Positions 369 to 64,000 of a stretch of 64,000 bases of DNA are shown here, piece after piece. Made by a program: the position numbers and the translations under genes. Source of the DNA: Lingula anatina (Eukaryota > Animalia > Brachiopoda); the NCBI GenBank assembly GCA_051362555.1, contig CM120647.1:10764651-10828650 (forward strand). Direction: 5' to 3'. A model generated the notes under the pieces. That model was not told the origin of the DNA and did not search any database. It worked only from the letters and a program-made list of their open reading frames with translations. Position 1 is the first letter of the stretch, and each line of letters opens with the position of its first letter.

Positions 369-630
369 ATGGGAATCTCAGTTGAGGCATGGAGGCTGAG
401 AATAGGTTGTTTTACACACTCTTCCTCGGCCAGCAGTGAAGATGACCCTCACAGAAACAGCCACCGGAAACGAAAGTGTAGAACCACAAATCATGATTGT
501 GTAGCCAAGGTCTTGCCTGTTGAACAAAATGAGGAGTTGCCCAGTGCCCTAGGGGCTAAAAGATTGAAAACAGCCTCTCCTAGAAAATCCTTTGCACAGC
601 AGTTATGCGCTTATATTCCAAATCTCAGAG
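369..630 (+). CDS. HELZ2: Coding exon 1: leader MGISVEAWRLRIGCF... with basic patches (HRKRKCR, AKRLK)
   Basis: ATG in strong context (ataATGg), in-frame TGA at 360-362, acceptor-like ttgtgttacag at 321-331, donor GAG|gtaatg at 630/631 (phase 1) matching exon 2. Confidence 0.72.
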
Positions 631-3600: not shown

Positions 3601-6600
3601 GATTATCATGTTTATTGTATTTATGCATTTTTTGTGAAATTTTCATTTTTCTCATTCTGGCACTTTCTAAGTATAAACTTGAACTCTGATGGGCCTGGAG
3701 CCTTATGCTTTTACTTTTGTCTGTGTTACCTGTTGTGCATAAGTTGATGTTGACTGTGCAGTTAAACATAATGTATTATTGCATCAGGATTGGTAGTCTC
3801 CTATTTTGGGCATTATGGTTTTGTGCTTTTCTTAAGGTGTGACTTATGGGCCTGAAGACCTTTGAGTGGGTCAGTCTGTAAATTACCCTTGGGTATCACT
3901 AGATTAATTTCAGAGTTATAAAGTCATTTGCTTTAATAGGTCATTAAATGAGATTACGTAAAGCACACTTGTTGATATTTCCCTGTAAACTCCCAAAGGT
4001 AAAGCTCTCTGCTAGATTAATAATAAGGAAGCAGTGATAATTATGCAGGTAAATTTTGTTTAATATTGCAAATAAGTTTTAAATATATATATATACCAAA
4101 CTGGAAGATTAAAAGTTTGAATAGCATCTTCATTGGAATTATATTTACCTCAAGCTCTGCCAAGGAGGTTATATTTTCACCCCTGTTTGTCTGTCATCCA
4201 CATAACACAAAAAAGTTATGGACCGATTTTGCAGAAATTTTCAGGAACTGTCGGAAGTGGGCCAAAGAGGACAATGATTAATTTTTGGTGGTGGTCCGGA
4301 TCAATAATCAATCAATTATCAATAATAATCAACAATTGCTGCCTTGGCAGAGGTCTGCACTCTCAAAGTGCTTTTCTAGTTTTGTTGTTTTCCTTTATAA
4401 TTTTTTCTCAAACACTTGCATTTGTGACTTTTAACTCTCATCTGCCTGGGGCTCTGCACATTTTCTGTATTTCTACATAAGCAGTTGTATTGTTTTTTAT
4501 GTCTTTAAACATTATGTAATATTATTTTATGCACTGTCATCATTTTTCAAATATTGAGACTTTCATAATGTGAATTTGAACTCTCATGGTCCTGAAACTG
4601 TAATCTTATTGAAGGGGTGGATTGAGACCATCTTCTGGGTCTTCCGGAAGACAGTCAGGTTATTAAGTTTATATTGACTGGTATCTATTTTTTTCTGTTG
4701 GAAGACCATCAAAATGGAGGATGGATCAACATAGATACTTTGTAATACTGTCAGAAAATATCTCTGGGTCTGCTCCTGTTATTGACCATGTTACCTGTTG
4801 TGCAAGATTAAAATTCAGTGTTGACTGACAGTGCTATTATAAGCATTATTTATTATTGCATCAAAATTGACAAAATGACCTTTTTTGCATCTTTATTTTC
4901 TGTTTTTTGTCTGTACATTTGACAGCTTTGCTGCCTTGTACTACATTTTTTTCACTCTTGTGCACATGTTTCAGGGTCTCCAGAGAATGTCATCCATAAA
5001 ATTAAATAAGTGCAACCTTAAATAGACATGAATGTACCCACATGGACTTTTTTGTTCTGTTTTTCACATTATTAAAAAAAATTTGATGTTAAAGGGTACC
5101 TGTCAGCCGGCCTGAGACTGCTGTTGTTAATAGGACTACTGTTGCTGGTGGCAGGAGATGTGGAGGCTAACCCAGGACCCAGTACAACACCTGGTTCTGA
5201 ACAGGTTTGTGGGAATGTAAATTACTAATTAAGCTGCATTCACAGTGGCTGACTAACTAGTCCGAAGATCAAGTATGGTGACCCACTTTAAAGTTTGCCA
5301 TCTAGTGATCTCCTTAACCGAATAGAATCCCATAGGGATTACGCAACAAGTATTTAAGTGAGGCGGCCATATTTATTCCACCGACTACATAGTCCACTGT
5401 TGTGAATGAGGCCTTAGAGCACATTCAGAACAGTGAACTAACAGCTAGGTCCACAGATCAGATATGGTGACCCACTAAAAAGCTTGCCACTTACTTCTCA
5501 ATTAGACATTGAAAAGGTTCCTTACTGGGATAATGCAACAAGCATTCAAGTGGGTCGGCCATATTTGATCCATGGATCTGTTAGGGCATTCAGAAGTATG
5601 ATGGATGATTCAAGTACAAACTGACTAAATACGGCTGACCCCACTACAAAAGCGATGCCACTGATTCCTGATGATAAAACAAATTAAATCTCGGCGTCAA
5701 GGTTTAATTGCTAGGCCCCTGCAGCAACGGACCAACATGGAATTAGTGGCATTGCTTTACAAGTGGGGTTGGCCATATTTAGTTGGCGAATCAGTTAGTA
5801 CTCTGATCATCTTTTCTGAATTGCCCTTCAGTCTGCTTTTTTGAATGTGTTCTTTGATATAACCATCTTATAATTACTTTTGGTTTATTGATTGATGATA
5901 TCAATTTTTTTATAAAATAATTTTATGTAAAAAAAAAATTTGTATTTTTATTTAATTTTTTTTACTTTGATTTAATGCTTTATATATCTAACATATTGTG
6001 GTAAACATTGCTATTTGCAAGATTGGTGCATTGATGTTCTTTTTTCTTATTTTTTGAGTGAACAATACGAATTTGTTAAAATGTGTTTTTAAAGATTTTT
6101 TGTTATTTAATTATTAAAGAACAATGGGGAAGATCCTGCCAAGGAAGAACTGTAAGTAAAAATGATTTTCACAAATTTCTAACACCTCTGTTATTGTACC
6201 ACCAGCGTTAGAGCTGGCGGTACACATGGTTTCGGTCCCGACCGGATCGTTCCGCCGGCTCCGCCAGCTCTGCCGGCTCCGCCGGATGGCTACCGTTACC
6301 GCTTCTCCTCCTAGACGGTAAGGGCCCCCGTACCCATCTCATGGATTTAGGTCACCTATAATCTCAACTCGTTCCACGTAAAATTTGGGCTTTGTCGGTA
6401 TTGGGGTCTGGGTGTGGCACTCATTGCAATGCACCCTTGTCTAAAAATGGCAAAATTAAATGCTAATTATCTACCCTACGGAAGGGGTTATGGGAAAAAT
6501 TTCTATAGACGGCTTTCCAAAAGTCATATGTGTAGATTTCAAATATACCCTTGGATTTGACCTTTGACCTTTATTTCAAGGTCAAATGGGCAAAAATTTT

Positions 6601-9600
6601 CAAAAAAATGAAATTTTTTACAAAAAAAAATTTTTTTGCCCTGTTATTCAGACACCACACAGACTTAACCAATAATATTATTGGAAAGTGTTACCCTTCA
6701 GGTCATCTTTCATCTCCATGAATTTGGGGTCAATGGGTGCATTTTCACGGGAGTAGCGGCCATAAGATACCGAAACTGAAAACTGTCTCTAATTCGGGAA
6801 CCGTTAATGCTAGAGACCCATTCTTTTTTGCATTTTGTAGAGCATGTAAAGCCCAACACTGGAGGTGGTCTCAGTTTTTTTTGTATTCCATACGGTTTTC
6901 GAGTTACGCTGTATCAAAAAGTACATATTGGTGGTAAAAGCAAAATGTGCAGTACGGTAATGGATAATAAATTTTGAACTCTGGAAAAATAAAACATAAG
7001 GCTTGGCAAAGCAGACAACTTGTGTTCAAAAATGACATTATTTCATCAAATTTGAACTTCTGAAACTTCAGAGCACCTCCTATTTCAAGAATTTTGACCA
7101 AAATGACATTTTCTTTATTTTAATTAATTTTTTTCTGTAGGAAATTTAAGGCACATTATGGTAACTCCAAAATTATAACATTTAGTCCCTTATATCTCCA
7201 AAACTGGCAGAGATAGGTCCATAGTTACTATTGAAGTTAAATAGGAAGTCATATACTGGCAATCTTACTATGACCTTGAAATTGACCTTTGACCTACTTT
7301 TCACCATGAACTGAACTTTGCAAATTTTTCTTCCCTTTTATCTCCAAAACTGGCAGAGATAGGTCCATAGTTACTATTGAAGTTGAATAGGAAGTCATAT
7401 ACTGGCAATCTAAATGTGACCTTAAAATTGACCTTTGACCTACTTTACACCATGAACTGAACTTTGCAAATTTTGCTTCCCTTTTATCTCCAAAACTGGC
7501 AGAGATAGGTCCATAGTTACTATTGAACTTGAATAGGAAGTCATAAACTGGCAATCTAAATGTGACCTTAAAATTGACCTTTGACCTACTTTTCACCATA
7601 AACTGAACTTTGCAAATTTTGCTTCCCTTTTATCTCCAAAACTGGCAGAGATAGGTCCATAGTTACTATTGAACTTGAATAGGAAATCATATACTGGCAA
7701 TCTAAATGTGACCTTGAAATTGACCTTTGACCTACTTTTCACCATGAACTGAACTTTGCAAACTTTTCTTCCCTTTTATCTCCAAAACTGGCAGAGATAG
7801 GTCCATAGTTACTATTGAAGTTGAATAGGAAGTCATATACTGGCAATCTAAATGTGACCTTAAAATTGACCTTTGACCTACTTTACACCATGAACTGAAT
7901 TTTGCAAATTTTGCTTTCCTTTTATCTCCAAAACTGGCTGAGATAGGTCCGTAGTTACTATTGAACTTGAATAGGAAGTCATATACTGGCAATCTAAATG
8001 TGACCTCAAAATTGACCTTTGACCTACTTTTCACCATAAACTGAACTTTGCAAATTTTGCTTCCCTTTTATCTCTAAAACTGGCAGAGATAGGTCCATAG
8101 TTACTATTGAACTTGAATAGGAAGTCATATACTGGCAATCTAAATGTGACCTTGAAATTGACCTTTGACCTACTTTTCACCATGAACTGAATTTTGCAAA
8201 TTTTGCTTCTCTTTTATCTCCAAAACTGGCTGAGATAGGTCCATAGTTACTATTGAACTTGAATAGGAAGTCATATACTGGCAATCTAAATGTGACCTTA
8301 AAATTGACCTTTGACCTACTTTTCACCATGAACTGAACTTTGCAAATTTTGCTTTCCTTTTATCTCCAAAACTGGCAGAGATAGGTCCATAGTATTGAAC
8401 TTGAAAAGGGAGTCATATACTGGCAATCTAAATGTGACCTCAAAATTGACCTTTGTCCTACTTTTCACCATAAACTGAACTTTGCAAATTTTGCTTCCCT
8501 TTTATCTCCAAAACTGGCTGAGATAGGTCCATAGTTACTTTTAAAGTTGAATAGGAAGTCCTATACTGGCAATCTAAGTGTGACCTTGAAATTGACCTTT
8601 GACCTACTTTTTATCATGAACTGAACTCTGTTAATTTCTTTCTCTTTTAACTTCAAACTTGACAGAGATAGGTCCATAGTTACTCTTGAACTTGAATAGG
8701 AAGTCATATACTGGCAATTTACTGTGACTTTGAAATTGACCCTTGACCTACCTTACGAAGAACTTAAATTTGATTGTACCATATATATTTTTTGCAATAG
8801 TTTAAAAATTCTTGTTGATTGCATTTTTACAGCTTGTCAAGCACAAAACTGGTGGCTATGTCCCTTATTTTGTGTATGTGGGGGTCTATACGAATGCGCT
8901 TGCTCCAGCTGGTGGTACAATATTTGGAGGCAGTATCGCCTCTCTGATCCTCTAGTTTCAATATCATTTATACAAAAATTTTTGTCTAAAAGTGTACGTA
9001 AGGATAAGAATCCAGCTTGCTTTTTAAACTGTCAGAGTTTCTTAGAAGTGCCTTGCAGAGATTCTAGGTTTCATATTTTGTAAAACTCATTTTAAAATTA
9101 ACATCTTCAGGCAAGCTCAGCCCATATCCCCAGAACAGCCACAAGCTCATGACGAAGAAGTAAGTAGAGAATATCAGAAAAGACATGGAAATAGGTATTT
9201 ACTACTTTACCTTAAATCACATTTAGAACAGAAGACTAACAGATCTGTGGATCAAATATGGCCGACCCACTTGAATGCTTGTTGTGTTATCCCTGCAGGA
9301 AATCTGTTCAGTGTCTAATTGGGAATTAAGCAGTGAGCTTTGAATTGGGTCGCCATATTTGATCCATGGATCTGTTAGTCAGCTGTTCTGAATAGGCTTC
9401 TATAGTCTTGGTATGTTCGTAAAAACAGACAGTCAACCAGCTCTTTGGGCTACTAGTGTCTTTCCAACCACTGTCCCACAGAACAAATGGTGGACATTAA
9501 AGAACACATTTTTAAGAAAAATGACCCCCCTCCCTTTAATTTTACTTGAGCCCATTTGTAGTCTGAGGTCTGAGGTCTTGGGTATTTTGTTCTTATAGAT

Positions 9601-12600
9601 TTGATTTTTTTTCTTTGCAGATTGCCAAATATGAGGAGGAGGTTATGGTGTATTTGGAGCGTGGCAAAGAACCATTTAAAAGAGGGGAATTTGATGTTGC
9701 TGCAGAGCATCTAAGCAGAGCACTGGAGTATGTGGAGAAATTCCACCTGCAGAAAGGCATTTGTATCACCCCCCTGCTGGCAAATGTTTATTTTAATCGC
9801 TGTCTTTGTTATCAGATGATGGTATGTTCCTGAGAGATTTTTATATTCATATATGTTTTTGGCCATCTTTGGAATTGTCTGTAGTGTGTAATTGTGTCTG
9901 TCTGTCTATATGTCTGTCTATCTGCCTGTCTGTAATTATGCAATTTACATGCTTAATGTATGTCTGCACTTGCATTTAAAGGTTTAATCAGTGATTTGAA
10001 AAGATTATTTAAAATATTCTTTTTCAAGTCTATTGAACCATCTGTTTTGTGACTATTGCAATAAAATGATTTTTATACCAATTGCATTATTTTTTATCTT
10101 CCAGGGTGAGGGCCATTATCTAATGGCATTGAAAGATCTTCACAAAGGTAAATTTGTTAATTTTTTCAAAATTTCTCTCTCCATTGGTTGCACATGGGGG
10201 AATTGATATAAATTTGGAATAGTCAAAAATTTGTTGTCAACTTTCAAATAAATAGAATTGATAGGTATAATTGTACCACCAGCGTTAGCGCTGGCGGTAC
10301 ACATGGTTTTAGTCCCATCCGGATCGTTATTTCAAGGTCAAACGGGCCAAAATTTTCAAAAAAATTAATTTTTTTACGAAAAAAAAAATTATTTGCCCTG
10401 TTATTCAGACACCACACAGACTTAACCAATAATATTATTGGAAGTTGTTACCCTTCAGGTCATCTTTCATCTCCGTGAATTTGGGGTCAATCGGTGCATT
10501 TTCACAGGAGTAGCGGCCATAAGATACCGAAACTGAAAACTGTCTCTAATTCGGGAACCGTTAACACTAGAGACCCATTCTTTTTTGCATTTTGTAGAGC
10601 ATGTAAAGCCCAACACTGGAGGTGGTCTCCGTTTTTTTGTATTCCATACGGTTTTCGAGTTACGCTGTATCAAAAAGTACATATTGGTGGTGAAAGCAAA
10701 ATGTGCAGTACGGTAATGGATAATAAATTTTGAACTCCAGAAAAAAAAAATATATAAGGCTTGGCAAAGCAGACAACTTGTGGTCAAAAATGACATTATT
10801 TCATCAAATTTGAACTTCTGGAACTTCAGAGCACCTCCCATTTCAAGAATTTTGACCAAAATGACCTTTTCTTTATTTTAATTAATTTTTTTCTGTAGGA
10901 AATTTATGGCACATTATGGTAACTCCAAAATTATAACATTTAGTCCCTTATATCTCCAAAACTGGCAGAGATAGGTCCATAGTTACTATTGAAGTTGAAT
11001 AGGAAGTCATATACTGGCAATCTTACTGTGACCTTGAAATTGACCTTTGACCTACTTTTCACCATGAACTGAACTCTGCAAATTTTGTTTCCCTTTTATC
11101 TCCAAAACTGGCAGAGATAGGTCCATATTTTCTATTGAACTTGAATAGGAAGTCATATGCTGGCAATCTTAATGTGACCTTAAAATTGACCTTTGACCTA
11201 CTTTTCACCATGAATTGAACTTTGCAAATTTTGGTTCCCTTTTATCTCCAAAACTGGCAGAGATAGGTCCATAGTTTCTATTGAACTTGAATAGGAAGTC
11301 ATATACTGGCAATCTAAATGTGACCTTAAAATTGACTTTTGACCTACTTTTCACCATGAACTGAACTTTGCAAATTTTGCTTCCCTTTTATCTCCAAAAC
11401 TGGCAGAGATAGGTCCATAGTTACTATTGAACTTGAATAGGAAGTCATATACTGGCAATCTAAATGTGACCTTAAAATTGACCTTTGACCTACTTTTCAC
11501 CATGAACTGAACTCTGCTAATTTCTTTCTCTTTTAACTCCAAACCCGGCAGAGATAGGTCCATAGTTACTATTGAAGTTGAATAGGAAGTCATATACTGG
11601 CAATCTATATGTGACCTTGAAATTGACCTTTGACCTACTTTTCACCATGAACTGAACTCTGCTAATTTCTTTCTCTTTTAACTCCAAACCTAGCAGAGAT
11701 AGGTCCATAGTTACTATTGAAGTTAAATATGAAGTCATATTCTGGCAATTTACTGTGACCTTGAAATTGACCTTTGACCTTCTATTCACCATGAACTGAA
11801 CTTTGCATATTTTGCTTCCCTTTTATCTTCAAAACTGGCAGAGATATGTCCATGGTTACTATTGAACTTGAATAGGAAGTCATATACTGGCAATCTTACT
11901 GTGACCTTGAAATTGACCTTTGACCTACTTTTCACCAAGAACTGAACTTTGCAAATTTTGCTTCCCTTTTTTTCTCCAAAACTGGCTGAGATAGGTCCAT
12001 AATTACTATAGAACTTGAATAGGAAGTCATATACTGGCAATCTAAATGTGACCTTAAAATTGACCTTTGACCTACTTTTCACCATGAACTGAACTTTGCA
12101 TATTTTGCTTCCCTTTTATCTCCAAAGTTACGCTGTATCAAAAAGTACATTGGTGGTGAAAGCAAAATGTGCAGTACAGTTATGGATAATAAATTTTGAA
12201 CTCCAGAAAAATAAAACATAAGGCTTGGCAAAGCAGACAACTTGTGGTCAAAAATGACATTATATCATCAAATTTGAACATCTCGAACTTCAGAACACCT
12301 CCCATTTCAAGAATTTTGACCAAAATGACCTTTTCTTTATTTTAATTAATTTTTTCTGTAGGAAATTTATGGCACATTATGGTAACTCCAAAATTATAAC
12401 ATTTAGTCCCTTATATCTCCAAAACTGGCAGAGATAGGTCCATAGTTACTATTGAAGTTGAATAGGAAGTCATATACTGGCAATCTATATGTGACCTTGA
12501 AATTGACCTTTGAACTACTTTTCACCATGAATTGAACTTTGCAAATTTTGCTTCCCTTTTATCTCCAAAACTGGCAGAGATAGGTCCATAGTTGCTATTG

Positions 12601-15600
12601 AACTTGAATAGGAAGTCATATCCTGGCAATCTAAGTGTGACCTTGAAATTGACCTTTGGCCTACTTTTCACCATGTACTGAACTTTGCGAATTTTGCTTC
12701 CCTTTTATCTCCAAAACTGGCAGAGATAGGTCCATAGTTACTATTAAACTTGAATAGGAAGTCATATACTGGCAATTTACTGTGACCTTGAAATTGACCT
12801 TTGACCTACCTTACGATGAATTCACTTTGATTGTACCATTTTAAGTTATATATATTTTTTGCATATTTTGAAAATTCTTGTTGATTGCATTTTTACAGCT
12901 TGTCAAGCACAAGACTGGTGGCTGTGTCCCTTACTTTGTGTATGTGGGGGTCTATACGAATGCGCTTGCTCCAGCTGGTGGTGCAATATTCAGAGGCGGT
13001 ATCGCCTCTCTGATCCTCTAGTTTTTTATGGAAGCAGCAAATATTGTTCTTGTTTTGGCTGTCACTTACATTAACTACGGTAAAAACGTGAACATTTAGT
13101 TAGTCTTGAAAATTTTGTTGAAAGACAATTCTCTACCAACCAAAGTTTTACACTTTGAAAATACAGTAAAACTTGAAAATAGGCCTCTCCATTCTTTTGA
13201 ATAGTTCATCACCTAATATGGCCATGTCATATTCATGCATTTAAAAATATTAATTGTTATTTAAATGACGAAATTTTTATCTCAATGGGCTGACCTGGCT
13301 GAACCACAGGGTGTAAAATTAACTGAATCAATTATTTCTTGTGACATTATTTTTTAGTTTCCATTGAGACATTGTGATATTTTTAACCAAGTAAAAGGAA
13401 AGTTTGGCGTAGTCAAACGACATTTTATGGCGACAACAATCTCCAGAGCTTATTTATGCACATGGGCATTCTGCACATGCTCAATTGTGCCCTAGAGGGG
13501 TAATCTCCTTTGAGGCACATGTTGCTACTTATACCATGGGGCATCACTGCCTGGCCTCATTTTGCTTGATTCATTCTGTTCACGAGTATGATACAATCAA
13601 GCTACAAGTTATCTCAAATCTGCAACTGAAATCTTCAGTTCAAAAAATTTCATTTTACCTCTATGAGAACTTTCCAGCAGTTCACTCGATCTGTTGAAGC
13701 GTACAGTGACAGATTCTGCACAACTTCAAGCAAGGATCAACAGTACAATTGCTGACTGTTACATGAATGCGGTAAGTTTTAGTTTCTCTAGCTATTTAGC
13801 AGTTGCAGTTGACAAAACGTTCTTTATCCAGGTGTTGCTTGTTTACTCGGATAGCGGTCACTGCGACTGCACAAAGAAATTAAGGGTCCTTGCGTGTAGA
13901 ATCTCCAGTCACCTGAAGACATAGGCGGACGCAACGTCCCAAAATTTATTTGATATCACATGGGCACATGCTTTGCCGATTCAGTTACCTACTTTTAGTT
14001 TCCCACTTCTATCATATTCCTCGTCAGGCGTTTCACTGTTCAGGGTAGATACCTTAGCAAAGTAGAGTATCTTGCTCAGTCTGACCTGCACATCATTATA
14101 AACCAGCTCAATCCAAAAATCAACCCTCCTTTCCTCATCAACTATTCGTTTTTGTTAGCACTGAAGTTACCATTTACACCTACTGTTTACTTATCATTGA
14201 GTTTCACATTTATAGCTCTGTCTTTAAGTCTTCTGAAGAAAATTTGTGGTCTTATATCAACTCCCACCCTCCACACATATCTACTACTTGGGTTCACTTA
14301 CTTAGGGCATTACAACTGATAGAGCATCTTAATTAAGTCAGAGAAGTAAATAGTTATTAGCTTTTCACTTTTCAGTAAGCAAGATAATTTTGCATGGGTA
14401 TTACAAGTCCCCCAGATATGGAAGATTTAAATACTTATTGAAGCACAGTGCCTTCATTTTTATCATATTCAATAACCTCTGTCCATTTTCTTAGGACTTC
14501 TCTCTTTCAGCTTTCAGTAGGATATTGCAAAACTTTCCCACCCTAGTTAATCGTATAAACATGTCTAGTATTCCTGACCCATTTTCAAGTCACAAGGCTC
14601 CATGAAAAGTCTCCTGTTCTCTGATTTAAATTAAAATTACAACCCAGCTTTACGACCCTTCTATGGCCTATTAAGTGAGGCTGGTCCCTTAATTAAGCAG
14701 TTGATAGAGGCTTACAATGCCTGACCCTACTGCTGAGGGTAATTATGCCCTCACCATAGCAAATACATCCTGGCCACCTGTTATGATAGTGATAAAGGCT
14801 GACAGCTGCCTAGTAGTAGTTCTCTAAAGATAAATACGAGCTATAAAGATGAACAAATACACAGGAATTACGAGTTACTGGCGAAATAGACTGAATTCCT
14901 TTAATCATTCAACAATTCAGTGGCGACTATTAAGTTATACATCTGAACTCACAACAAGATAAAACATAAAATTTATATATTATATATTATATACATATAT
15001 CTGAGTTTCAAAAATGCACACTAGCTTAGACATGCTTTTGAAATCCTAACGTTTTTAGGACCAGTGGTTGAAATAGAAGAACGCATTTTATAATATACCT
15101 CAATTTAATAATCATCTTGGGCATCGGTTATTTTAGAGGCTAACATGACAACTTGCCGTATATTTGAGTGTAAATAAAGAAATCCTCCAAAAACAAAATA
15201 AACGGCTTCATCTGGGAAATTCAGTCTCCTCGGTAGTAAATAAGACCATGATTCAAACCTTCATGTAAAGTGTACCCCATGATAACATACAAGACATACA
15301 AAGACAGGAGTCTGACATAATTCCAGATGTACACCCTGGCAACTGGGCAAGCATCTTAAGAGGGCATTTCATTCACTAGTTCCCTCAATCATCGAGGATT
15401 TAGTTCTTATAATAGTGACAATAATAATAATAATGATAATAGTGGTAACAATATCATTTTTCACTTTGTTTGCTGAATGCCACTCGGGTTGGAGCACACC
15501 TTTCGGACATGGGGCAATACAAACTTAAGCCTAATAAGCATGGACCCATCAGAAAGAATTTCTCTCAGTAAGTTGAACTAACCCCCCCCCCCCCCCCCCC

Positions 15601-18600
15601 CCCTTTCACTTTTCTTAATCAGACTCTGACCTTTTCAGGGCCTCATGTAAATTGGTCACTTAACTGTATCACGACCTTTTCAGGGCCAAGGTACACTTCC
15701 TTTCTAGGTCAGTTTCTGACCTTTTTAGGGCCTCATCCACGTAACTTTCTTAACCAGTTTCTGACCTTTTCAGGACCAAGGTAAACTTCCTTCATAATCA
15801 GGGCCTTGTGCACTTTAGTTTGTTAAACAAATTCTGTCCTTTTCAGGGCCTCATACACATTTGCTCTCTTATCCGGATCCCGACCTTTTCAAGGCCAAGG
15901 TACACGTACTTCTTTTCAGGGCCTTGTGCACATTCGTTTTTTAATCAGATTCTGTCCTTTTCAGGACCAAGGTTCGCCTTTCTTTACCAGTTTCTGACCT
16001 TTTCAGGGTTTATGTATGTTGTGTTCTCTACCAGTTACTGACCTTTTCAGGGTCTATGTTTGTTGTGTCCTTAACCAATTTCTAACCTTTTCATGGTTAT
16101 GGTACATTTCCTTCTTAATCAGATCTTGTCCTTTTCAGGGCACATTCATTTTTTAACCTTTTCAGGACCAAGGTTCACCTTTCTTTACCAGTTTCTGATC
16201 TTTTCAATGTTATGGTACACTTACTTCTTTATCAGATCCTGTCCTTTGCAGGGCACATTCTCTTCTTAACCAGATTCTGTCCTTTTCAGGACACAATCGT
16301 TTCTTAACCAGATTCTGTCCTTTTCAGGACCAAGGTTCACATTTGTTACTGGTTTCTGACCTTTTCAGGGTCTGTGTATGTTGTCTTCTTTTCCAGTTTC
16401 TGACCTTTTCAAGGCTATGGTACATTTACTTCTTTATCAGATCCTGTCCTTTTCAGGGCACATTCGCTTCTTAACCAGATTCTGTCCTTTTCAGGGCACA
16501 TTCGTTATTAACCAGATTCTGTCCTTTTCAGGACTAAGGTTCACATTTGTTACTAGTTTCTAACCTTTTCAGGGTCTATGTACGTTGTGTTCTTTACCAG
16601 TTTCTGACCTTTTCAAGGCTATGGTACACTTCCTTCTTAACCAAATTCTGCCCCTTTTCAGGGCACATTCTTTTCTTAACCAGATTCTGTCCTTTTCAGG
16701 GCACATTCGTTTCTTAACCAGATTCTGCCCTTTTCAGGGCCAAGGTTCACCTTTTTAACCAGTTTCCTAATTTTCAGGGCATCTTGCACATTCGTTTCTA
16801 AACCAGCTTCTTAAGTAGATTTCGGCCTTTACAGGACCTTACATACATTCATTTCATCACCAAATTGTCCTTCTCAAGGTCAAGCTACATTTCTTTACCA
16901 GTTTCTCAAACAGATTCTGCCCTTTTAGATCCAATTTGTTTCCTACCAAGATTAAGGCCCCCTTATACACCATGCATGCTGCACAGTTTCAGACCTCTCC
17001 ATTTCATTTATTTATTTATTTATTTAATTTTCTCATACAGCATTAATGTCATTTCAACTTAATTTTTCTGGCATCTTTCTATGCCACAGTCAGTTTATTT
17101 ATTTATATTTTATTTCCCACTGCATCGGGACTAATGGCATGCTTTTCCAACATAGTTCTTTATTTACTTATGCGTTCCTCATCAGTATGTTGGGTAGAGT
17201 GGCATGCTTTTAGTACATACTTGTTTATTTATTTATATTTTCCTCACCCGCTACGTCGGGTTGAGTGGCATGCTTTTATGAGATGTTTATTTATTTATTT
17301 ATATTATCCTCCCCGCTACATCGGGTTGAGTGGCATGCTTTTATGACATATTTATGTATTTATTTATATTCTCCCCGCTACGTCGGGTTGAGCGGCATGC
17401 TTTTATGACATTTTACTATCCTCCCCGCTACGTCGGGTTGAGTGGCATGCTTTTATGACATATTTATTTATTTAATTATATTATCCTCCCCGCTACGTCG
17501 GGTTGAGCGTCATGCTTTTATGACATTTATTTATTTATATTATCCTCCCCGCTACGTCGGGTTGAGTGGCATGCTTTTATGACATTTATTTACTATCCTC
17601 CCCGCTACGTCGGGTTGAGTGGCATGCTTTTATGACATATTTATTTATTTATTTAATTATATTATCCTCCTCGCTACGTCGGGTTGAGTGGCATGCTTTT
17701 ATGACATATTTATTTATTTATTTATTTATATTATCCTCCCCGCTACGTCGGGTTGAGTGGCATGCTTTTATGACATATTTGTTTACTTATTTATACTTTC
17801 TTCCCTACTGTGACGGGTCAATAGGTATGCCTTCTTTACAGGGTTATTTATCTTTTTCCCCACTATCAAAAGTCTGTGTATGTGCATGCACGCTTTCATA
17901 ATTCATTTACTTACTCATTTTCCTTTTACTAATTGCCATTATTTTTGTGCAAGTTCATTGTTCTCCAAGCTGCATTGGATTGCTTCATTCTTTCCTTTGT
18001 GGGGTTTTCCTTGCCCAGTGCATTTGCACCAGTCAAGGTTATGGCCTCTTTGCAACCCCACAAATTAAATTTGTGCAAAATTGTTGGTAAATAATAACTT
18101 TTGCTGACTCGTCGCATGGTAATTTTTAGGATGATGAGTCTCATTGAATATTTGATATATAATTTTTATCCCTAAGGCCATAACATTTAATACAGGCAAC
18201 AATTTGCTACATTGTCATTATTGTAAATACGATTAGGATAGAGGAGTTATATAATAAAAGCGGCCTGGTTTGGCCAAATCACAAACAAACAATATTCCTT
18301 GTTGCCTTCTTTCTTGCTATGAATGAGACTATAAAAGTTTGTGGTACACTGAGATGGAGGAGACATAAAGGAAAGTTTGGCGTAGTCAAACGACATTTTA
18401 TGGCGACAACAATCTCCAGAGCTTATTTATGCACATGGGCATTCTGCACATGCTCAATTGTGCCCTAGAGGGGTAATCTCCTTTGAGGCACATGTTGCTA
18501 CTTATACCATGGGGCATCACTGCCTGGCCTCATTTTGCTTGATTCATTCTGTTCACGAGTATGATACAATCAAGCTACAAGTTATCTCAAATCTGCAACT

Positions 18601-21600
18601 GAAATCTTCAGTTCAAAAAATTTCACCCACCACCATCCCCGTCTCCTCCTTCATACCACATTTGTCTCCTCTGCTGACCGAACTTTGCTTGCATTATATT
18701 TGACCATCATACTGCGTGCGTTTTTACTTTGATTTTTCAGTGTTGTATACCTGTCAAGAGCACCACTGCCCAGCGAATGTGCCAGTACACAGACGCCTAC
18801 CAGTAATGCCACAGTGAAATCTTTGGATGTATTCATCTAGAGCAATGAATGGGTGGAGTCGCCTACCAGTAATGCCACAGTAAAATCTTTGGATGTATTC
18901 GTCTAGAGCAACGAATGGTTGGAGTCTTGTCTTTTACAAGTTAAACTTTTACATCTTCAACTGAAGGACGGCTGTTGCTTATGTCAATCTGTGGTCCACG
19001 CATTGCAGCATCCACACCATCTTCCTAATCCAGAGGAAAGGGAGAAGAAATTGTATGTGGGTAGTCATTGCGCATGACTTTACAGGTCCTTTAAAGGCTA
19101 CCTCTGTACTGGACAGTCATCAGCCCAGCAAGTCTTGCGGGTTGATCAAACATTAGTATCGACATATGGTGTTAAGAGTTTTGATTTTTCACTTGTTGCC
19201 ATAGACTTCTTTCAATGCCCACCACCAGCCACATATCAAGTCTCGTCGTTCCATATTACATTCTCCCGAGTTCAGATGATATTGGGTCACCTTTATAAGA
19301 GTATGTGACATTGTCACATGAAGATTTAGTGGGTTCATTTTCAGATTACTTTTTAAATATAACGAACAGTGGCCCAGCAAGCCTTGCGGGTCCATTTTTG
19401 ATCTGTGCATACTGCAGAGGTCATTGGAACAGCTGTATAATAATCTGTCATACACCGTTTTAGGGGCCAAACAGGCTCCATTCCCGGTTTTTGCTTACAC
19501 GATTATTAGCCATTTCAATGTGTGGCGACATGAGTGTTGCAAAAATACAACTTGTGTACCTGCTGTTTTCATGTTGTATGAGAATTTTGACTCTATTTTT
19601 AAGACCCAGTCATGCTTTTTGCATAATACGGCCCAGCAAGCTTTGCGGGTCCATCTCTACATTTGTTGAAATCAGGAATATAAGGGGATCAGTTGTATTA
19701 GAACATACATGTGTAGGTTATCCCCGACTCTGCTTCTTCATTCACATTTGATTCTAGTCATTGATAACTATAAACCGGAAGGAAATTGCCCTTCCGCAGA
19801 TAACCACTTAAAACTGTTAACTATAATAGTAATCAACTAGTAAGGTGCAAGCTAGGATGGCATGGCAATTATAGAGAGTTCACTCTTCCAGCTGTTTTCA
19901 GCATATGGGAAAAACTGAACCTCCCCCCTTCCTTTGTTTAAAAAAAAAAAAAAAAAAAAAAAAGGGAGTAGGGGTTAGGTCACCCGCTAACAGCATTGTC
20001 ATGCCGTACTTATGTAGATTTGTATTGAGAATCCTGCAATAGGCAATGCATTGGCCTCGCCTTTGCAATCAGACAAGCTGAATTGGATGCAATACCGTAG
20101 CTTATACTGAATCACTGCTTAGGGTAACTAGTGTTATTGAATATTCGACATAGTGGGGGCCTCTTTGCAACCCCACAAATTAAATTTGTGCAAAATTGTT
20201 GGTAAATAATAACTTTTGCTGACTCGTCGCATGGTAATTTTTAGGATGATGAGTCTCATTGAATATTTGATATATAATTTTTATCCCTAAGGCCATAACA
20301 TTTAATACAGGCAACAATTTGCTACATTGTCATTATTGTAAATACGATTAGGATAGAGGAGTTATATAATAAAAGCGGCCTGGTTTGGCCAAATCACAAA
20401 CAAACAATATTCCTTGTTGCCTTCTTTCTTGCTATGAATGAGACTATAAAAGTTTGTGGTACACTGAGATGGAGGAGACATAAAATTTAAATGGAAGCAA
20501 AATGTAGTTCAACACTGTTTTAAACAGCTTTTGTGGAACAGTGTATTGCAGGAGGCCTGATAGAAATGTTTGCAAATTTGTATATTGTAAATTTTTACTG
20601 CAGCGTGAAACCCAAGATCAGTACCAATATTTATACTATATGATTTAATTGATTTAATATTTATTGATAAGGAATGATCATTTCAAAGTAATTAAAGTAT
20701 ATAGAAGTCATGAAGATATGAAATCAAGAGGGTAGCATATAATAGATAAATCATATCATCTGACTTCTACATCTATATGCTTGACAAGAGCCTCACATTA
20801 AGCCAATATGTTATTTTTTCAGCCATTGTGTACTGCAGTGAAATTACTATGATAATTGATGAATACCTTGTTCGAGGGAATATACTGTTAAGCATGATCA
20901 GCAGACAAATTAGGGTTGACAATGACAGAAATCAGGTATAGTGTACCCTGACTTTGATATAAGCCTGATACTTTTTTATGAAAGTTTGGTCATGGTATAC
21001 AGAAATGACTCCTTATTTTCAGTGGGAAAAAATATGAAATTTTCAGATGCATAATTTTACAATTAAAAAATTAGCTGTTTGCATTATTTGTGGTACTTCT
21101 TCTGTATAGAATAGAAGTATTAATATTAACTGCTTTTCAGTTTTGTTGCTACCACTCCACAGGAATGTCCTTGATTTTGAGGTACAACAATAGTGTTAAA
21201 ATGCAAATTGTGATATTTAATTGTCAAAGATAGAAACCAAAAATAAATCCTTACCAAATAGATGTCTTTTTGTGTGTGTGTAGGCGGAGGAAGCAAAAAG
21301 AGTTATCGAGGTCATGAAAAAAGACGGCATCATTGGGTTCAATAAACAAGAATACATGAAAGCCTTAGCAATATATGGTCATGCATGCAAACTGGCTCAC
21401 CTCTTGCGCAACTGGAGAGATAAAGATGCAGATGTGATTTTGGCCGATATGAAAGTGAGGTTTGCAGAAACATGGTTCGCGTTGGTGAGTATTCAGAGAG
21501 TTGGTAACTGAATAGGTGAAACCATTTAAAGATGCATACAAAGTCAATTTTTTGTCACAAAAACCAACCAAATGCCAGCATATAGGTTCAAGTAGTATAA

Positions 21601-23477
21601 CTAAGAGAATTACCAAAAGGCATTGTTTAATTTTACCCAAAAATGATGTTTGAACAGATTTTTCTGCTGGCATTCTAAGCTGTATGTCAATGGGGCAGGA
21701 AAGTAGGTCACGGAAGTAGGTTAAATTTACAACCATAAATTTAAAAAAAGTAGCAGTCTAAAGGTCTTTTATGGCTGATCAAGTGATCTATTCAGTTTAT
21801 CCCTTGGCATGTCAAATTTACTTGAGTCATATAAGAATCTAGTAGAAGTGGTTTACATGTGTTACTGGGAATCCACGCTCCACCGATGCTCGGTTCGTAT
21901 GTACCTTTAAGTGCAAGTTTTTCTAACCACCAGGCAAATCAGCCAAAAAGCGGCAAGGTGGGGTTCTCACAGAATACACTCATTTTGCCCACAGTTAATC
22001 ACCTTTGTGACCTTAATTTAACTGTAAAATATTAAAGCTTTCCGTTGCGTTATTGTCGAGATACAGCCACATGAATATTTCACTGCCTCGCGTGGCTCCC
22101 GTCTCACTTTTCAGCTGTGTGAGTGGTGTATTTTTCACCGAAGTTTGCTTCACAAATGTGCATCAAGTGATCAACTCATTACTTCGGTCAATACCAAAAT
22201 TGAAAGATGGATATATAATCTTTATAACGACAGAGATTTATATCATAAATCCGTTGCTATGGTTACAAACTACCGAGGTTATTTGAGGTCACTTGATGAC
22301 TGCCGCAGATACCCACCCTGTCAATAGCCTTATATCTCCACTAGTAGAGCACCTTAGATAATTTCACTGATATTTACTGAAAATATGGACAAGGGGCCTA
22401 CCATAAATTAAAACACTGGCGTGGCCTTTTGCCTACAAATTTTGCAACAGCGACGCAAATTCTTCTATTTTCTGGCTACATTATCGTAAAGCATTTTTGC
22501 TTCCTACTGTTTCGATTTGCATTCAAGAATGTTTAAGTTAATTTCAACGTTAGTTAGGGACTAATTAACTGAAATAGTCTTCTGTAGTTTTTATTTATTG
22601 ATTCCTGGATAATAAGTATATGCTAAGTTCAAATACGGGGGTTAACATGCATTCGAAACTAAATTCGTGTAGGCGGCCATGACAGTTTCAAGTAGCAGTG
22701 GTGGAAGACGTGCGATGAATGCACTGCAGATTTCCCGAATTTCAAGCAGCAAAGCGTATACTTTGTTGTTCTGTAGACCGTTACAAAGACGGAAAGGTTG
22801 TGCGATACTCAGGAGATACGACTAAGATGATTGGGGTCACCTCCCGATGCTAAAAGTTACATGCAGTGTGAGAGGCTAATGAGAGGCAGTGTCATCATCA
22901 GAGGAAATGGAGAGTGAGCTCGACTCAGTCGTGTGTCCAGCGCATTGTCACATGCTGTGGATCCTTTGGGGAGCTGCAAGAACACGTCAACTACTTCTTC
23001 GGACCAAGTTATTATTGTAGGACTTCCCTTGCTCGGACCAAGCGGGAGCTTTCATGAACAGTCAGTGTATTCAAATTTTTATGAAGACGAAGCCAAGATG
23101 TTCAGTTCGTTGGGCCCAGGTAATTAAAAAGTTGACATTCGTCACATCTTTATAATTAATTAACACACCGAATTCACATACAGACGGAAGGTTGATAATG
23201 GTATGATATCTGTGTTGTTTGAATTAAATATGCATAGTAATTAGACAAGTGAAGCTAAGTCATCATCTAAATACTGCTATCTCTGACCCTCAGAACCACA
23301 GCAAATTTGTTATTACATATAGTGAAAAGAGCTTATGTTTTGTACTGTACATATCAGCAGTGTAAACTTTTTTGTTTGTAAGAGCAACAAGTTACAGAAC
23401 CCTCACAACTAAATAATACTGCTTTTGTAGGTCATTGCTTGTGATTAAAAGAGTAACAATCATATCACAATTACATG

Positions 23478-23537
<60 letters not shown>

Positions 23538-26500
23538 AAGCTTAGTTGTAGCCTAAAATGGGGTTTCATGTTAAATTTTGTTGGTTGAAAATTAAAACCA
23601 TTCAGTAGATTAAAGAATAAATTTTTGTTGTTATTTTAGCTAGAAGATGTTTGGAGACTGGTCAGAAAGAGCAGCCAGGAATCAGATATATGGCAAAGAA
23701 AATAAAGTGATTAATCCAAGCACCCGAAAAAGAAGTTTTGTGAAGAGGATTGACTTACTGCCCAACAGACTGAAATGTATTTTTGATGTTTTTCTACTTT
23801 GAACAAGTATTTGTATCTACAGTTGAAGGACACCAATGACCTGACAGATAGCTAATGTCAGCCCTGATGATCCAAGCAAGTAGCAAGGAGATCCCCCATA
23901 AGGAAGGACAGTAATTTATGGGAGCTTCATTAAATGATGAAAACTGACACTTTTTCGGTGACCTTTTTTTACAAGACATGAATTTTTGCCCCAGAAACGT
24001 GGAATTCCGCATTTTTTAATTCAATTCAAGGTGTCCCGGACCTCTGGCCGCTTAGGAGTCCCATGATAAATGTTCGGAGTTCTTTATTTATTTATTTATT
24101 TATTATTATTTTTTTTTTTGAAACCTAGGATCATGTCTGCTTTTTCTGTTTCATTTTACTGAAGATATCCATGAATGCCACCTTTAAATGGGATAAGATC
24201 TTACTGAGATATTGATATGGAATATCATATTTTTATTCCTTGGAGCAAAAGATCAGTTTGACTTAAATATTTAGAAGCAGCAGTATATGTTCCTGGTCCT
24301 GAGTAGTGCAGAATAATCCATGAATTACACCGTTACAGAAGTTGAACTTATTTCTTCATTCTTCTCAGGAAGGGGATTCAGTTGGATAATATAGATTTAC
24401 ATTACTTTGATGTTTTTGTAGAATGAAAATCAACCTTACTTTTTTTTTTTTGAAACATTCACTTAAATCTTGAGTCAAAACTTTGTCGGTGTCTTATTCA
24501 GTTAAGGGTGACAGGAGTAGTCTTGAATGGCAGTTACAATGCCTTCCACCCATTTATTAAGTTATTGGTAATAAATATTTTCCAGTATAAAGATTTGAAT
24601 TGTTTGCTACACTTCCAAATAATTTGCTTATTTATACTTAAACTTTAAAGATCCAATAAAGAGATGATTCCACATCACCGTCTAGTGACGTAATAGGCTC
24701 CACATGAGAGATGCGCGCGCAGCTCAGCGTCATTTCATTGCGCCGTTTCTCAGCGAAGCGTACGCGGATTTACAAGCTGCATGAAATTAATATTTCTGCA
24801 GTGTTTTGAGTTTTTTGAGTGCTCAAGCACGTCTGCTGACATACTGTTAATACAGTGATTTGTGTTTTAATACACACTGATACATATTTATCGCAATAAA
24901 TGCACGAAATCGTGCTAACTACTGTATTCATGTGTTGGGATTAGCGTTTCAGACTGTTACAAGCACTGTTTTGCGCACATTGCTACTGCGCTTCAATTTA
25001 TATGCGCACAAGTGTACTGCGCAATAAAAGTATATTAAGCGTGGTAAAAGTTTTATACAGTGACACCGACAAAAATGGCGGATAAAAATTCTGAAGGTAA
25101 CAATCAGCCCGAAAATTCGGGTTCAAAAACCAGTAAAGTTATCGTCAAAGAGAGTAGACCAAAACAAAAGACTGACAAGGAGATAAAAACACATGCGAAA
25201 CGGGTTGTCAGTGCGTCTAAGGAGATTTCTAACGAGGAGGTGAAAGTGCCGACGCCACGTGCTTCGGCTAGCACATCGAATGACACCTCCAATGGAGGGA
25301 ATGTCGATCTTTTGGGTCAAATTCTCCAAAAAATGGAGCAAATGCAAAAACAAATCAATGAAAACAGTAAACGTCCTTTAGAAGTCGACGAAGACGATTT
25401 GTTGGCTCTTAGCGATGAGGAGTCGCTTGATATGGATTTAGAAGTTGACAACCTACTGACTAATACTGAAATCCACAGTGAAACGGAAGGGAATATAATT
25501 CTTGAGAAGATTTCCCAAGAATTAATTGACGAAGAAGCAACATCTCCTAGTATAATGCCAGAATTGGCGGAGATTCTCAATAGAATAACGTCAAAAAGAA
25601 TTTCGGATGAGAAAATTAAGGAAAAGTTGGAGAAGTTTCCACCTCCAGCGAACTTGGGTGGGCTGAAAGTGCCCAAAGTTAATACAGAGGTGTGGAATAA
25701 AATTCTACCTGCTACCAGAGGTAAAGATATTAGATTACAGAAAGCGCAGACCAGGGTGGTCAGAGCGCTCACACCTCTGGCCCAACTTGCGAATATGTTT
25801 CTGGAGGCTAAAAATAAAAAGGAGTCATTTGATATTCCAGCTGGTTTGTCTCTTGTATTAAATGCGTTTTCGTTTGTTGCCAATGGCAGCATTGAGATAT
25901 CCCTTAGAAGGAGAGAACTGATAAAACCAGACTTGCACAGGGAGTACAGAGACGTTTGTTCACCGGACACCCCCATTACCGAATGGTTATTTGGCGATGA
26001 TTTTGCCGGGGTTGTGAAAGGTATCAATGAAACCAACAAGGTAGCAACAAAAGTGGGAAGCCGTAAAGATTACCATGGGCGTAATCGCCCAGCATATAGG
26101 CCAAGAGGTTTTCAAAAGTACACACCTTCAAAAAACGGCTACAGAAATTTCAAGAAATCAAGGCCAAATCACGCAGGCAAGCCCAAGCGGGATTAGAGAG
26201 AAAAAATGAAGCACCTAAAGAGGTCAGTATCAATTGGTCATCATATATTGATGCTTTAAAAGATAAATTGGCCACTGAGATAGCAAATTTTACTGCAGGT
26301 AATTTACAAAAGTGCAAAAAGTTTTGGCCAAATCTTACGTCAGATAAGTATATACTGAATACTGTTTCATATGGTATCAATATTGAAATAGACCAATCAA
26401 CACAACAGTCAAGAATTCCTCAGACTTATGCTTTCAATAAAGTAGAATCTGATATAATTTGTACTGAAATCCATCAACTTTTAGAGAAGAAAGTGATACG

Positions 26501-29500
26501 AAAGGTCAAACATTGTGCAGGTGAATTTATTTCCAATATTTTCTTAAGAGAGAAAAAAGATGGAAAGTACAGATTGATTTTAAATCTGAGGAAACTTAAT
26601 ACTTCTGTTGTATATCATCATTTTAAGATGACCAGTTTGCAGTCAGCCATTAATCTTATGAAACCTCAGTGTTTTATGTCAACCATAGATTGGAAAGATG
26701 CTTATTATTGTCTGGCAGTTTGTGATGAACACAAGAAACTGTTAAGATTTGAATTTGATGGGAACTTGTATGAATATCAGGTTTTACCAAATGGCTTGGC
26801 GAGTGGACCACGTGTTTTTACTAAAGTTACCAAACCAATTTTTTCCTATTTGAGGAAATTAGGTCACATGAATTGTCCATACATTGATGACAGTCTCTTA
26901 GTTGGAGAATCTTTGCAAGATTGCAGAGAGAATGTGATGCAAACAGTTAAAGTTTCTACTCAAGCAGGGTTTACTGTGCATCCAACTAAGTCTGTTTTAG
27001 AACCAACACAAAAGTTGGATTTTTTAGGCTTTACATTGGATTCTGTAAAAATGCAAGTGTCCTTAAACAAGAGACAAGCAGATAAAATATTTTCGGCATG
27101 TACCGATCTCTTACAGCAGGACTGTATAACTATTCTACAATTGGCAAAAGTAGTAGGATTATTGGTAGCATCTTTTCCTGGTGTAGAATATGGGCCTCTT
27201 TTTTATAGGTCACTGGATATGAGAAAAAATCAAGCTTTAAAAGCTAGTAAAGGAGACTTTCAAGCAAAATTGCAGATTGCCAATGATGATGCCTTGAAAC
27301 TAGACTTGACTTGGTGGATACAAAATATTCATTCAAGTTTTAAGTTGATTTCACATGGGAACCCTTCATCAGTTATTTATTCTGATGCATCAGAAAAAGG
27401 ATGGGGGGGAGCATGCAGGGGCATCACATCAGGAGGAAACTGGTCAGCAGTTGAAAGTACTTTTCACATTAATCATCTTGAATTATTAGCTGCATGGTTT
27501 GCTCTAAAATGCTTTGCACGAGATGAAACAAATATTCACATTAAAATGTGTATAGATAATACAACTGCTTTGTCATATATTGCTCGAATGGGAGGGAAAA
27601 TACCCTCGCTAAATAACTTGGCCAGAAAAATTTGGTTATGGTGCAAGGGAAAAAATATATGGTTATCAGTTGCATATATTGAATCACAAAATAATGTAGA
27701 AGCTGATAAAGAAAGTAGACTTGATCATGATAATCTTGAATGGAAGTTGCACCAAACAGTATTTAAAGATATAACTAAGCAGTTTTATCTACCAGAAACA
27801 GATCTGTTTGCTTCAAGGCTGAATAATCAACTACCTAAATATGTATCATGGAAACCTGATCCATTTGCTATGACAACAGATGCCTTGTCTATTGACTGGT
27901 CACAGATAAATGCTTATGCATTTCCACCTTTTTCTTTAATAGGAAAGATGTTAAGCAAGATAGAGTTTGATCAAGTGGATAGTATCATAGTGGTAGTGCC
28001 TTATTGGACAACTCAAGTATGGTTTTCAAAATTGAGCCATATGTTAATATCTTGTCCTTTTTTACTTCCCAGGAAGCAAGAATTGCTGTGGCACCCACAC
28101 AAAAACATGGACAATCATCTTCCAAAGCTACAGCTAATGGCTTTTGTATTGTCAGGGAAAGTTTCGAAGACATGGCATTTTCGCCAACAGCTGTCAAATT
28201 GGTCATGTCCTCATGGAGAGATACAACTGTCAAGCAATACGAATCTTACATTTCCAGATGGATTCAATATTGTAGTGAGAGGAACATTAATACCCTGTCA
28301 CCAAATGTAACTGATGTTGTAAATTTTCTAGCCCATTGCTTTGATATGGGACTTGGATATTCTGCTCTTAATACAGCAAGATCAGCACTTTCAACTTTTA
28401 TTATGGTGGATAAGTGTCCAGCAGGTGCTCATCCTCATGTGGTTAGACTGATGAGAGGAGTTTTTACTTCTAGACCTGCATTACCAAGGAACAATGTGAT
28501 ATGGGACACAAGTTTGCTTTTGAATTACCTCAAAAAACTTTCACCTGTGAAAAAACTTAATCTTTTACAACTGAGCAAGAAAGCAGTGACATTGACCATT
28601 TTATTGACAGGTCAAAGAACGCAATCCTTGCATCTTATTGACATTCGTAACATCACAATTAATAAGTCTAAAGTCACATTTAGATTTGGTGATTTACTGA
28701 AGCAGTCAAGACCAGGTCACCACATTGGTGAAATAACAGTGACAGCATATGCACCAGATAGACGATTATGTTTATGTACTGTCTTAATGGAATACATGGA
28801 CCGTGTCAAACATTTAAGAGGAAATATCACAAGATTGTTTTTAACATCTGTAAAGCCATTTAAGGCAGCAGCCAAATCTACCATATCTAGATGGATTAAG
28901 CAAACTATGAATATGGCTGGTATAGACATGGAGAAATTTACTCCACACAGCACACGTAGTGCAGCATCTTCACAAGCAAAACTTGCTAAAGTGCCATTAG
29001 ACACTATTTTGAAGACGGCAGGCTGGTCTAAAGATTGCACATTTGCTAAATATTACGATAAAGAAATAACTCAACAGGGCCAGTTTGCAGATGCGATTTT
29101 GTCTGGCACTAGTGCACATGTTTGACATGGACATTCAGATTTACAGGGAGATGTTTTATAAACTGTTTATTTGATTTTACTTTTTTAGCTGCAACTTGTG
29201 CAGTTACAGTTGTTACCTGCAAATTGTGCAGATGAAGTTCTTTCGAGCATTTAAATATGCTGTTTATAACTGCAACTTGTGCAGTTAGAGTTGTTTCCTG
29301 CAAATTGTGCAGATGAATTTCTATTGTGCATCAAATATGCTGTTACAAGTTGTTTGATAAACAAGTTTATTGTTCTTTGCAGTTAATACATGTTGATTTA
29401 AACACATAGTGTTTGTGCCTTTATTTGCTGGTTTCAAAAAACCTTGTAAGGTGTTGTGTTCGGACCACACTTTGAACGTCTCATGTGGAGCCTATTACGT

Positions 29501-63531: not shown

Positions 63532-63712
63532 ACATTTTATACTTAAATTATAATGGAAAATTAAAGTGAATTAACATATATGTTTAATTGAATAGAGAGA
63601 TAAAACTGTTGTGAGGTATCAGAATTTTTCTTTCCTAACTAGTTACCAAGAGATTTGGAGAATTATGCCCCCTGTCATCATAATTAAAACAAAATAGAGA
63701 TAGAGATAATTG

Positions 63713-63718
63713 AATAAA
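63713..63718 (+). promoter_or_regulatory. Candidate polyadenylation signal
   Basis: AATAAA about 180 nt after the stop, followed by GT/T-rich sequence; weak evidence in AT-rich DNA. Confidence 0.3.
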
Positions 63719-64000
63719 GTGTTTGAGCTTTTGATTTCCCCATACTCCTTTTACATTCCTAATGCACTTGATATGTCTTGTTAGCAAAATTTCCTTGTAT
63801 TGGACTCATACAAAAGAAAGTAACTGAAGAAGCCCTACTGGTGACTTGATTTGATAATTTGCATATCAAATATTTCTCAATATAGACACAGAGAAAGAGA
63901 TCCTACCTGCAGAAAAAGTAATTCATACACAATTTTTCATATGAATGCTTTTAGGTACTGAGTTCTACAAAAATTTAGCACCCAGGATGCAAAGACAACT

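Follow-up and report, generated by a model that had tools for sequence, protein, structure and literature searches.

The 64-kb stretch of the brachiopod Lingula anatina genome analysed here (contig CM120647.1, positions 10,764,651 to 10,828,650; hereafter the window) carries a HELZ2-like helicase-nuclease gene with a 2A/StopGo-like ribosome-skipping element near its N-terminus. With guidance from the predicted proteins P0002 (XP_013400663.2) and P0007, we built a model of 34 exons on the plus strand, GT-AG at every junction, which encodes at least 3759 amino acids free of stops and extends beyond base 64000, the window end. The largest open reading frame (ORF) of the window is 95% identical to P0002, a Lingula anatina 'helicase with zinc finger domain 2'. 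After the leader (exons 1 and 2) and exon 3, the protein continues through a tetratricopeptide repeat (TPR) region in exons 4-11 (9111..35902), which would open the released protein, a Cys/His-rich, zinc-finger-like and linker region in exons 12-20 (36277..49090), a first superfamily 1 (SF1) helicase (GAFGTGKT, DEAGQ), OB_HELZ2 and an RNB nuclease domain with TIDPKDSEDLDDA in exons 21-24 (50002..56474), and a second SF1 helicase (GPPGTGKS, DECGM) in exons 25-34 (56699..64000). The Pfam AAA_11/12 helicase pair flanks OB_HELZ2 (PF25049) and RNB (PF00773), which is the architecture of the HELZ2 family, and the catalytic-aspartate pattern TIDPKDSEDLDDA lies at residue 2375 of the window model; the HELZ2-like identity proposed in an earlier note on this DNA is thus borne out by domains and located motifs. 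The RNB pattern comprises four aspartates, a pattern treated in PMC10516660.

The skipping element lies in coding exon 2 (5095..5204, 110 nt, phase 1 to 0, residues 88-124), which is preceded by AG, followed by GT and translated from 5094 as GYLSAGLRLLLLIGLLLLVAGDVEANPGPSTTPGSEQ. A Leu-rich helix of the LLLLSG-like class, LRLLLLIGLLLLVAG (5112..5156), precedes the core DVEANPG|P (5157..5180, residues 109-116), the only NPGP in the six frames of the window, and the predicted skipped bond, Gly115|Pro116, falls between 5177 and 5178. The core follows the consensus (D/G/C/N)(V/I)ExNPG|P, and LLLVAG is an L-rich hexapeptide ending in (A/S/C)G, a class of upstream context defined in PMC12846837; the earlier note's description of a consensus 2A with a Leu-rich helix is supported. 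By chance, D[VI]ExNPGP octamers would be expected about 8e-6 times per 3750-residue protein and 3e-4 times per six-frame window.

Exon 1 (369-630, phase 1), exon 2 (phase 0) and exon 3 (6120..6151) join in frame, and the same join is found in the NCBI models XP_013400663.2 and XP_013414704.1, both from Lingula anatina. Because it runs from phase 1 to phase 0, exon 2 is obligatory for the frame; without it, translation would end at codon 112. Of the nine RNA runs listed, four were mapped to 4990-5300, with 6-30% of each run read, and all four have reads on exon 2 (3, 1, 1 and 3, together 8), oriented as the sense transcript; three reads of run X1 pass from 5204 into exon-3 sequence, and depth drops to zero at the exon edges, save for a few unexplained upstream bases in run X9. 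Variants in the reads comprise two synonymous changes and Ala107Ser, the Ser being a step toward the LLLLSG consensus. The element is real, expressed and intact, within an expressed ORF whose 5' junction is based on the NCBI models, and the short in-phase exon described in the earlier note is upheld by splice-site ends, phase, gene models and reads together. Just 3' of the exon lies a degenerate repeat of about 190 nt (5251-5300 and 5260-5800), on which 15 X1 reads of about 90% identity align in the opposite orientation; these derive from elsewhere.

Coding exon 1 (residues 1-88) begins at the first in-frame ATG, whose context includes A at -3 and G at +4, shares its N-terminus with P0002 and P0005, and contains an upstream motif and a polar spacer before its phase-1 donor. 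Met1 is the sole methionine before residue 160, the position of the next one. The motif, MGISVEAWRLRIGCF(T) (369..416), has the consensus MG[IV]xxxx[WY]Rx[RK]IGxF, common to ORFs of long interspersed nuclear elements (LINEs) and to other immune genes. The residue numbering (94-116) and the leader length of 115 residues given in the earlier note are correct; the part downstream of the predicted skip site has at least 3644 residues rather than the roughly 3635 given there.

The two-part leader recurs well beyond Lingula. A phmmer search of 1.84 billion proteins gave nine matches, namely a second Lingula version, one repeat artefact (P0129, dropped as a leader relative) and seven proteins with both motifs, so that seven of the eight non-Lingula matches carry the pair. 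These seven start with MG[IV]xxxx[WY]Rx[RK][IV]GxF and reach GD/NVExNPGP 60-73 residues in; two continue as ORF1p-like coiled-coil proteins, as judged visually and from their resemblance to a tick protein that a preprint table (PMC13405545) labels ORF1p, and another continues into a PHD finger. In a metagenome scan covering 25 of 64 parts, 601 pattern matches led to 28 confirmed loci, 17 of which have both motifs, a share that is not a frequency because the loci were picked for their resemblance to a query that itself bears the motif. Four of the 17 encode Pfam endonuclease and reverse transcriptase (RT) domains, two as two-ORF LINEs (L004, L010) and two as single-ORF endonuclease-RT LINEs (L016, L019). 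The Lingula leader shows the motif pair and spacer layout of these LINE loci, a feature defined in this analysis. Overall, the pair stands at the start of ORF1 and endonuclease-RT proteins of LINEs, of cGAS-like genes and of immune proteins from sponge, urchin and clam, and recurs on unrelated immune genes in several phyla.

In three loci (L008, L009 and L011) the leader pair forms an exon, with a phase-0 donor 81-84 nt past NPGP and an in-frame acceptor downstream; L009 is assigned to Pfam Mab-21_C, and L008 and L011 are Mab-21/cGAS-like by similarity. In this Mab-21/cGAS-like family, which comes from an animal in metagenome data (L008 1237-3520, L009 2260-6326, L011 2863-5997; also L006, L007 and L012), the two-motif 2A leader makes up a first coding exon of its own. 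Other leader-headed ORFs that are not LINE-like include a 1100-residue coiled-coil ORF with a Spin/Ssty match (L014 1424-4756), a C2H2-rich ORF (L017 90-590) and one with a herpes-tegument-type deubiquitinase-like domain (L021 450-977).

The upstream motif is conserved as a peptide, its codons varying synonymously, which rules out conservation at the DNA level, as of a promoter. It is predicted to be helical without packing into a domain: a folded leader domain is not supported by the structural model, which gives two separate helices (pTM 0.31; 18 sequences, one row misaligned), and an amphipathic membrane helix is ruled out by a hydrophobic moment of 0.08 in Lingula and 0.05-0.33 over 26 leaders. 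Leader lengths span 55-123 residues in 26 redundant examples, none being shorter than 55, and this floor may reflect exposure of the motif during a pause, or else the sum of the two motifs plus query bias. The 2A exon and the leader-only matches fall into no Pfam family, and neither the PDB nor the ESM Atlas gave a match to a short leader.

Among 120 listed HELZ2 homologues of 613 matches, about one-third invertebrate and none from another brachiopod, neither the 2A core nor the upstream motif occurs in any, so the leader is a lineage-specific addition; conservation of the motif in HELZ2 orthologues, which the earlier note had looked to, did not materialize. Nor is its label 'virus-style' supported as to origin. 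The leader matches the LINE-type two-part layout, and the upstream motif is absent from all 10 viral 2A loci (19 sites), nine of which are near-identical, making them effectively two viruses. A scan of IMG/VR gave one upstream-motif match with no 2A within 200 translated codons (a negative that is weak for animal viruses because IMG/VR is mostly phage). This match (L039 1501-1545, minus strand) presumably resembles a RecA-family loop and is probably a coincidence. A viral origin is rejected on present data, and the source looks transposon-like rather than viral. In picorna-like viral ORFs (L029-L034, L036-L038 and L023), a tandem pair of 2A sites, separated by 110-160 residues, lies close to the N-terminus.

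Within the window, neither ORF1 nor an apurinic endonuclease (APE) with RT follows the 2A, as would be the case in a 2A-bearing non-LTR retrotransposon, and there is no LINE body: 16 proteins of leader-bearing loci, mostly LINE ORF1 or ORF2, match the window solely at the upstream motif. Both motifs are intact in three Lingula versions, the upstream one being identical at 16 of 16 residues, and the decayed LINE fragment that the earlier note had entertained thus finds no counterpart here. Among the window, P0002 and P0005/P0007, divergence amounts to 1-4% in the leader and 4-6% over residues 1001-1500, but to about 12% in the TPR region. These three versions represent either alleles or recent paralogues, and the TPRs may be under diversifying selection.

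The reading that we favour, and hold to be reasonably probable, is that the 115-residue, two-exon leader is LINE-derived, that its 2A stalls the ribosome and frees the leader, and that some ribosomes then continue, producing a Pro-starting helicase-nuclease. The leader would have been captured from a LINE-type retrotransposon, the direction from LINE to gene being the one suggested. In Lingula, the ribosome would pause at Gly115, release the leader at Gly115|Pro116 and, in a fraction of cases, resume to yield a free, cytosolic HELZ2-like enzyme. Output would be limited because only a fraction of ribosomes would resume past the 2A; the cassette would remove itself and limit the nuclease dose, a putative throttle that keeps a potentially harmful RNA nuclease low.

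A LINE 5' end could instead have been captured for its promoter and start codon as a neutral passenger, its motifs persisting because the capture is recent. The lineage restriction among the 120 listed homologues, with one species sampled, would agree with this, as would a spacer as conserved among the Lingula versions (68-72 of 72 residues) as the motifs. However, a 4.5-kb intron splits the leader and its spacer is longer than that of most relatives, yet the motifs sit at consensus; no LINE body or DNA similarity remains around them; the leader is better kept than the TPR region (129-134 of 135 against 266-270 of 305 residues); and the same pair stands on unrelated immune genes in several phyla. 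We regard a neutral passenger as very unlikely.

As for the skipping step on which a self-removing leader depends, the library of the Snell and Matreyek 2026 preprint (PMC13405545) holds a 20-mer identical to the Lingula peptide, with library DNA equal to the window at 59 of 60 bases. Supplement file 3 classes it as skipping/fall-off with reduced protein, and in the pooled reporter in human cells it lowers signals on either side of the site. The probable 2A activity proposed in the earlier note gains support from this, and activity of some kind at the Lingula 2A is likely. Clean skipping at the Gly-Pro bond is putative and, given an ambiguous green score, unproven. The green channel is the direct indicator of skipping and is expected to drop, but it barely moves for this 20-mer. 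The preprint's Leu-rich eukaryotic 2A-like 'stall-helix' peptides include the identical 20-mer, classed active; its assays used 20-mers lacking the upstream motif, whereas the Lingula leader has it. In the accessible text of the preprint, Lingula, HELZ and helicase are unnamed, and the Lingula protein is absent from its structure table.

The Leu-rich peptide might also act as a stall or degron, lowering output or making ribosomes fall off with little true skip-and-continue, so that the enzyme would retain its leader. Consistent with this, the green score stays near that of non-skipping controls while red and infrared drop, the preprint (PMC13405545) makes the case that Leu-rich eukaryotic 2As mainly reduce protein output, and a Mercenaria peptide of the same leader type is classed fall-off/reduced. 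The core is nevertheless fully canonical in the three Lingula versions and in the read variants, and L-rich upstream motifs skip at more than 92% in vitro for a viral example (PMC12846837); we judge a pure stall or degron unlikely.

Several points weigh against release of a captured leader by skipping. The green score of the 20-mer, 3.00, is closer to the non-skipping controls than to P2A (P2A scores 2.25/2.54/2.30; five non-skipping controls 2.88-3.12 / 3.07-3.45 / 2.87-3.09), and the class call comes from a model on pooled sorting, which recovered the class of 86% of its training samples. Peptides that are nearly identical land in different classes, only 7 of 22 singly tested peptides skipped classically, and the authors request individual confirmation of pooled classes (PMC13405545). 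To the query bias among the metagenome loci and the small effective number of viruses must be added that our comparison set includes no Lingula LINE with the leader as a donor candidate, and that selection on the motifs is not singled out, because the spacer is equally conserved among the Lingula versions. Finally, of the two splice junctions that the earlier note predicted, 5204/6120 is seen in the three reads described, whereas 630/5095 is seen directly in none; as no loose read end is listed at 5095 in the mapped runs, where depth is only 1-3, the exon 1/exon 2 join rests on phase and the NCBI models.

The earlier note had envisaged a dual-localisation switch, in which an unskipped product would keep residues 90-108 as a signal-anchor and enter the endoplasmic reticulum (ER) while the skipped product stays cytosolic. 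The hydropathy of this stretch is borderline: its Kyte-Doolittle mean over 19 residues is 2.3, and a crude insertion sum, lacking a positional term, comes to -0.6. By eye, an additional hydrophobic stretch is visible in three long LINE leaders. The 2As of urchin NLRs do show dual targeting (PMC4981915). The Lingula segment, however, is internal, behind 89 mostly polar residues, unlike the N-terminal 26-residue urchin peptide, and a negative insertion sum is found in only 6 of 26 related leaders. Flanking charges of +1 before and -2 after would send the enzyme into the ER lumen, where it would be separated from RNA, an outcome that would resemble disposal more than a second site of action. Human HELZ2 is cytoplasmic (PMC10516660). 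Because the segment does not form a signal peptide at the N-terminus, dual membrane targeting, though possible, lacks support, and we find it doubtful.

Beyond a self-removing leader that meters the enzyme, it is conceivable, although improbable, that upstream peptide and 2A pause form one co-translational device, in which a host factor reads the motif on the paused ribosome and decides location or output; LINEs would use the device, and immune genes of at least four phyla (NLR, death-domain, GVIN1-like, cGAS-like and HELZ2) would have borrowed it. Such reading could work because a leader of at least 55 residues is about enough to expose the 15-residue motif at the tunnel exit during the Gly-Pro wait. 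If so, a homologue of a human LINE-restriction nuclease would be made in Lingula under the LINEs' own leader.

That LINEs and invertebrate immune genes can carry cellular 2As is already known. Sea-urchin NLR 2A-like signals (Roulston et al. 2016, PMC4981915) share with Lingula the setting of a marine-invertebrate innate-immune gene and a Leu-rich 2A near the N-terminus, but the urchin peptide of 26 residues lies at the extreme N-terminus and doubles as a signal peptide, whereas the Lingula 2A ends at residue 116, in an intron-split 115-residue leader with a separate upstream motif, ahead of a helicase-nuclease. In 2A-bearing APE-type non-LTR retrotransposons (Odon et al. 2013, PMC3708506) the 2A lies about 40-120 residues from the N-terminus, as in Lingula, and the LINE loci found in this analysis have the same upstream motif, which is undescribed in the accessible part of that paper; unlike those elements, the Lingula window has no ORF1, endonuclease or RT remnant, and the leader serves a spliced host gene. 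Vertebrate HELZ2 and the Lingula protein both have two SF1 helicases, OB, RNB and a zinc-finger region (PMC10516660), to which Lingula adds the TPRs and the 2A leader, and interferon control is inapplicable. Human HELZ2 initiates at a GUG codon, a different unusual translational start, and nuclease activity, immune induction and restriction of LINEs or viruses are demonstrated for the human protein alone (PMC10516660, PMC9839780). Its restriction of LINE-1 (PMC9839780) makes a LINE-type leader on the homologue worth testing, any action of the Lingula enzyme on LINEs being hypothetical.

What appears new is the presence of the leader on a HELZ2 gene, its division by an intron and the conserved motif upstream: our literature searches, whose coverage leaves subscription papers and theses outside, returned no report of 2A/StopGo on HELZ2, of a 2A-like sequence in Lingula or of the motif. 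The published tests of cellular 2As considered here used short peptides in reporters. In Lingula, the host enzyme is intact and expressed and a reporter score for its 2A exists already, and a second conserved peptide, left out of those assays, lies upstream. If immune genes acquired the pair from LINEs as a mobile regulatory cassette, the repeated appearance of 2As on invertebrate immune proteins that are unrelated to one another would be explained, and what the released leader does could be tested directly.

The introns of the gene hold other repeats. Within intron 8 lies a DIRS-type element (25048-29125, plus strand) with three long overlapping ORFs, which are gag-like, an RT with a Dam-like methylase stretch, and a tyrosine recombinase. 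Large tandem arrays occupy 1490-3151, 7186-8751, 10944-12809 and 15673-17795, with periods of 161, 333, 146, 146 and others, the 146-nt array being present twice.
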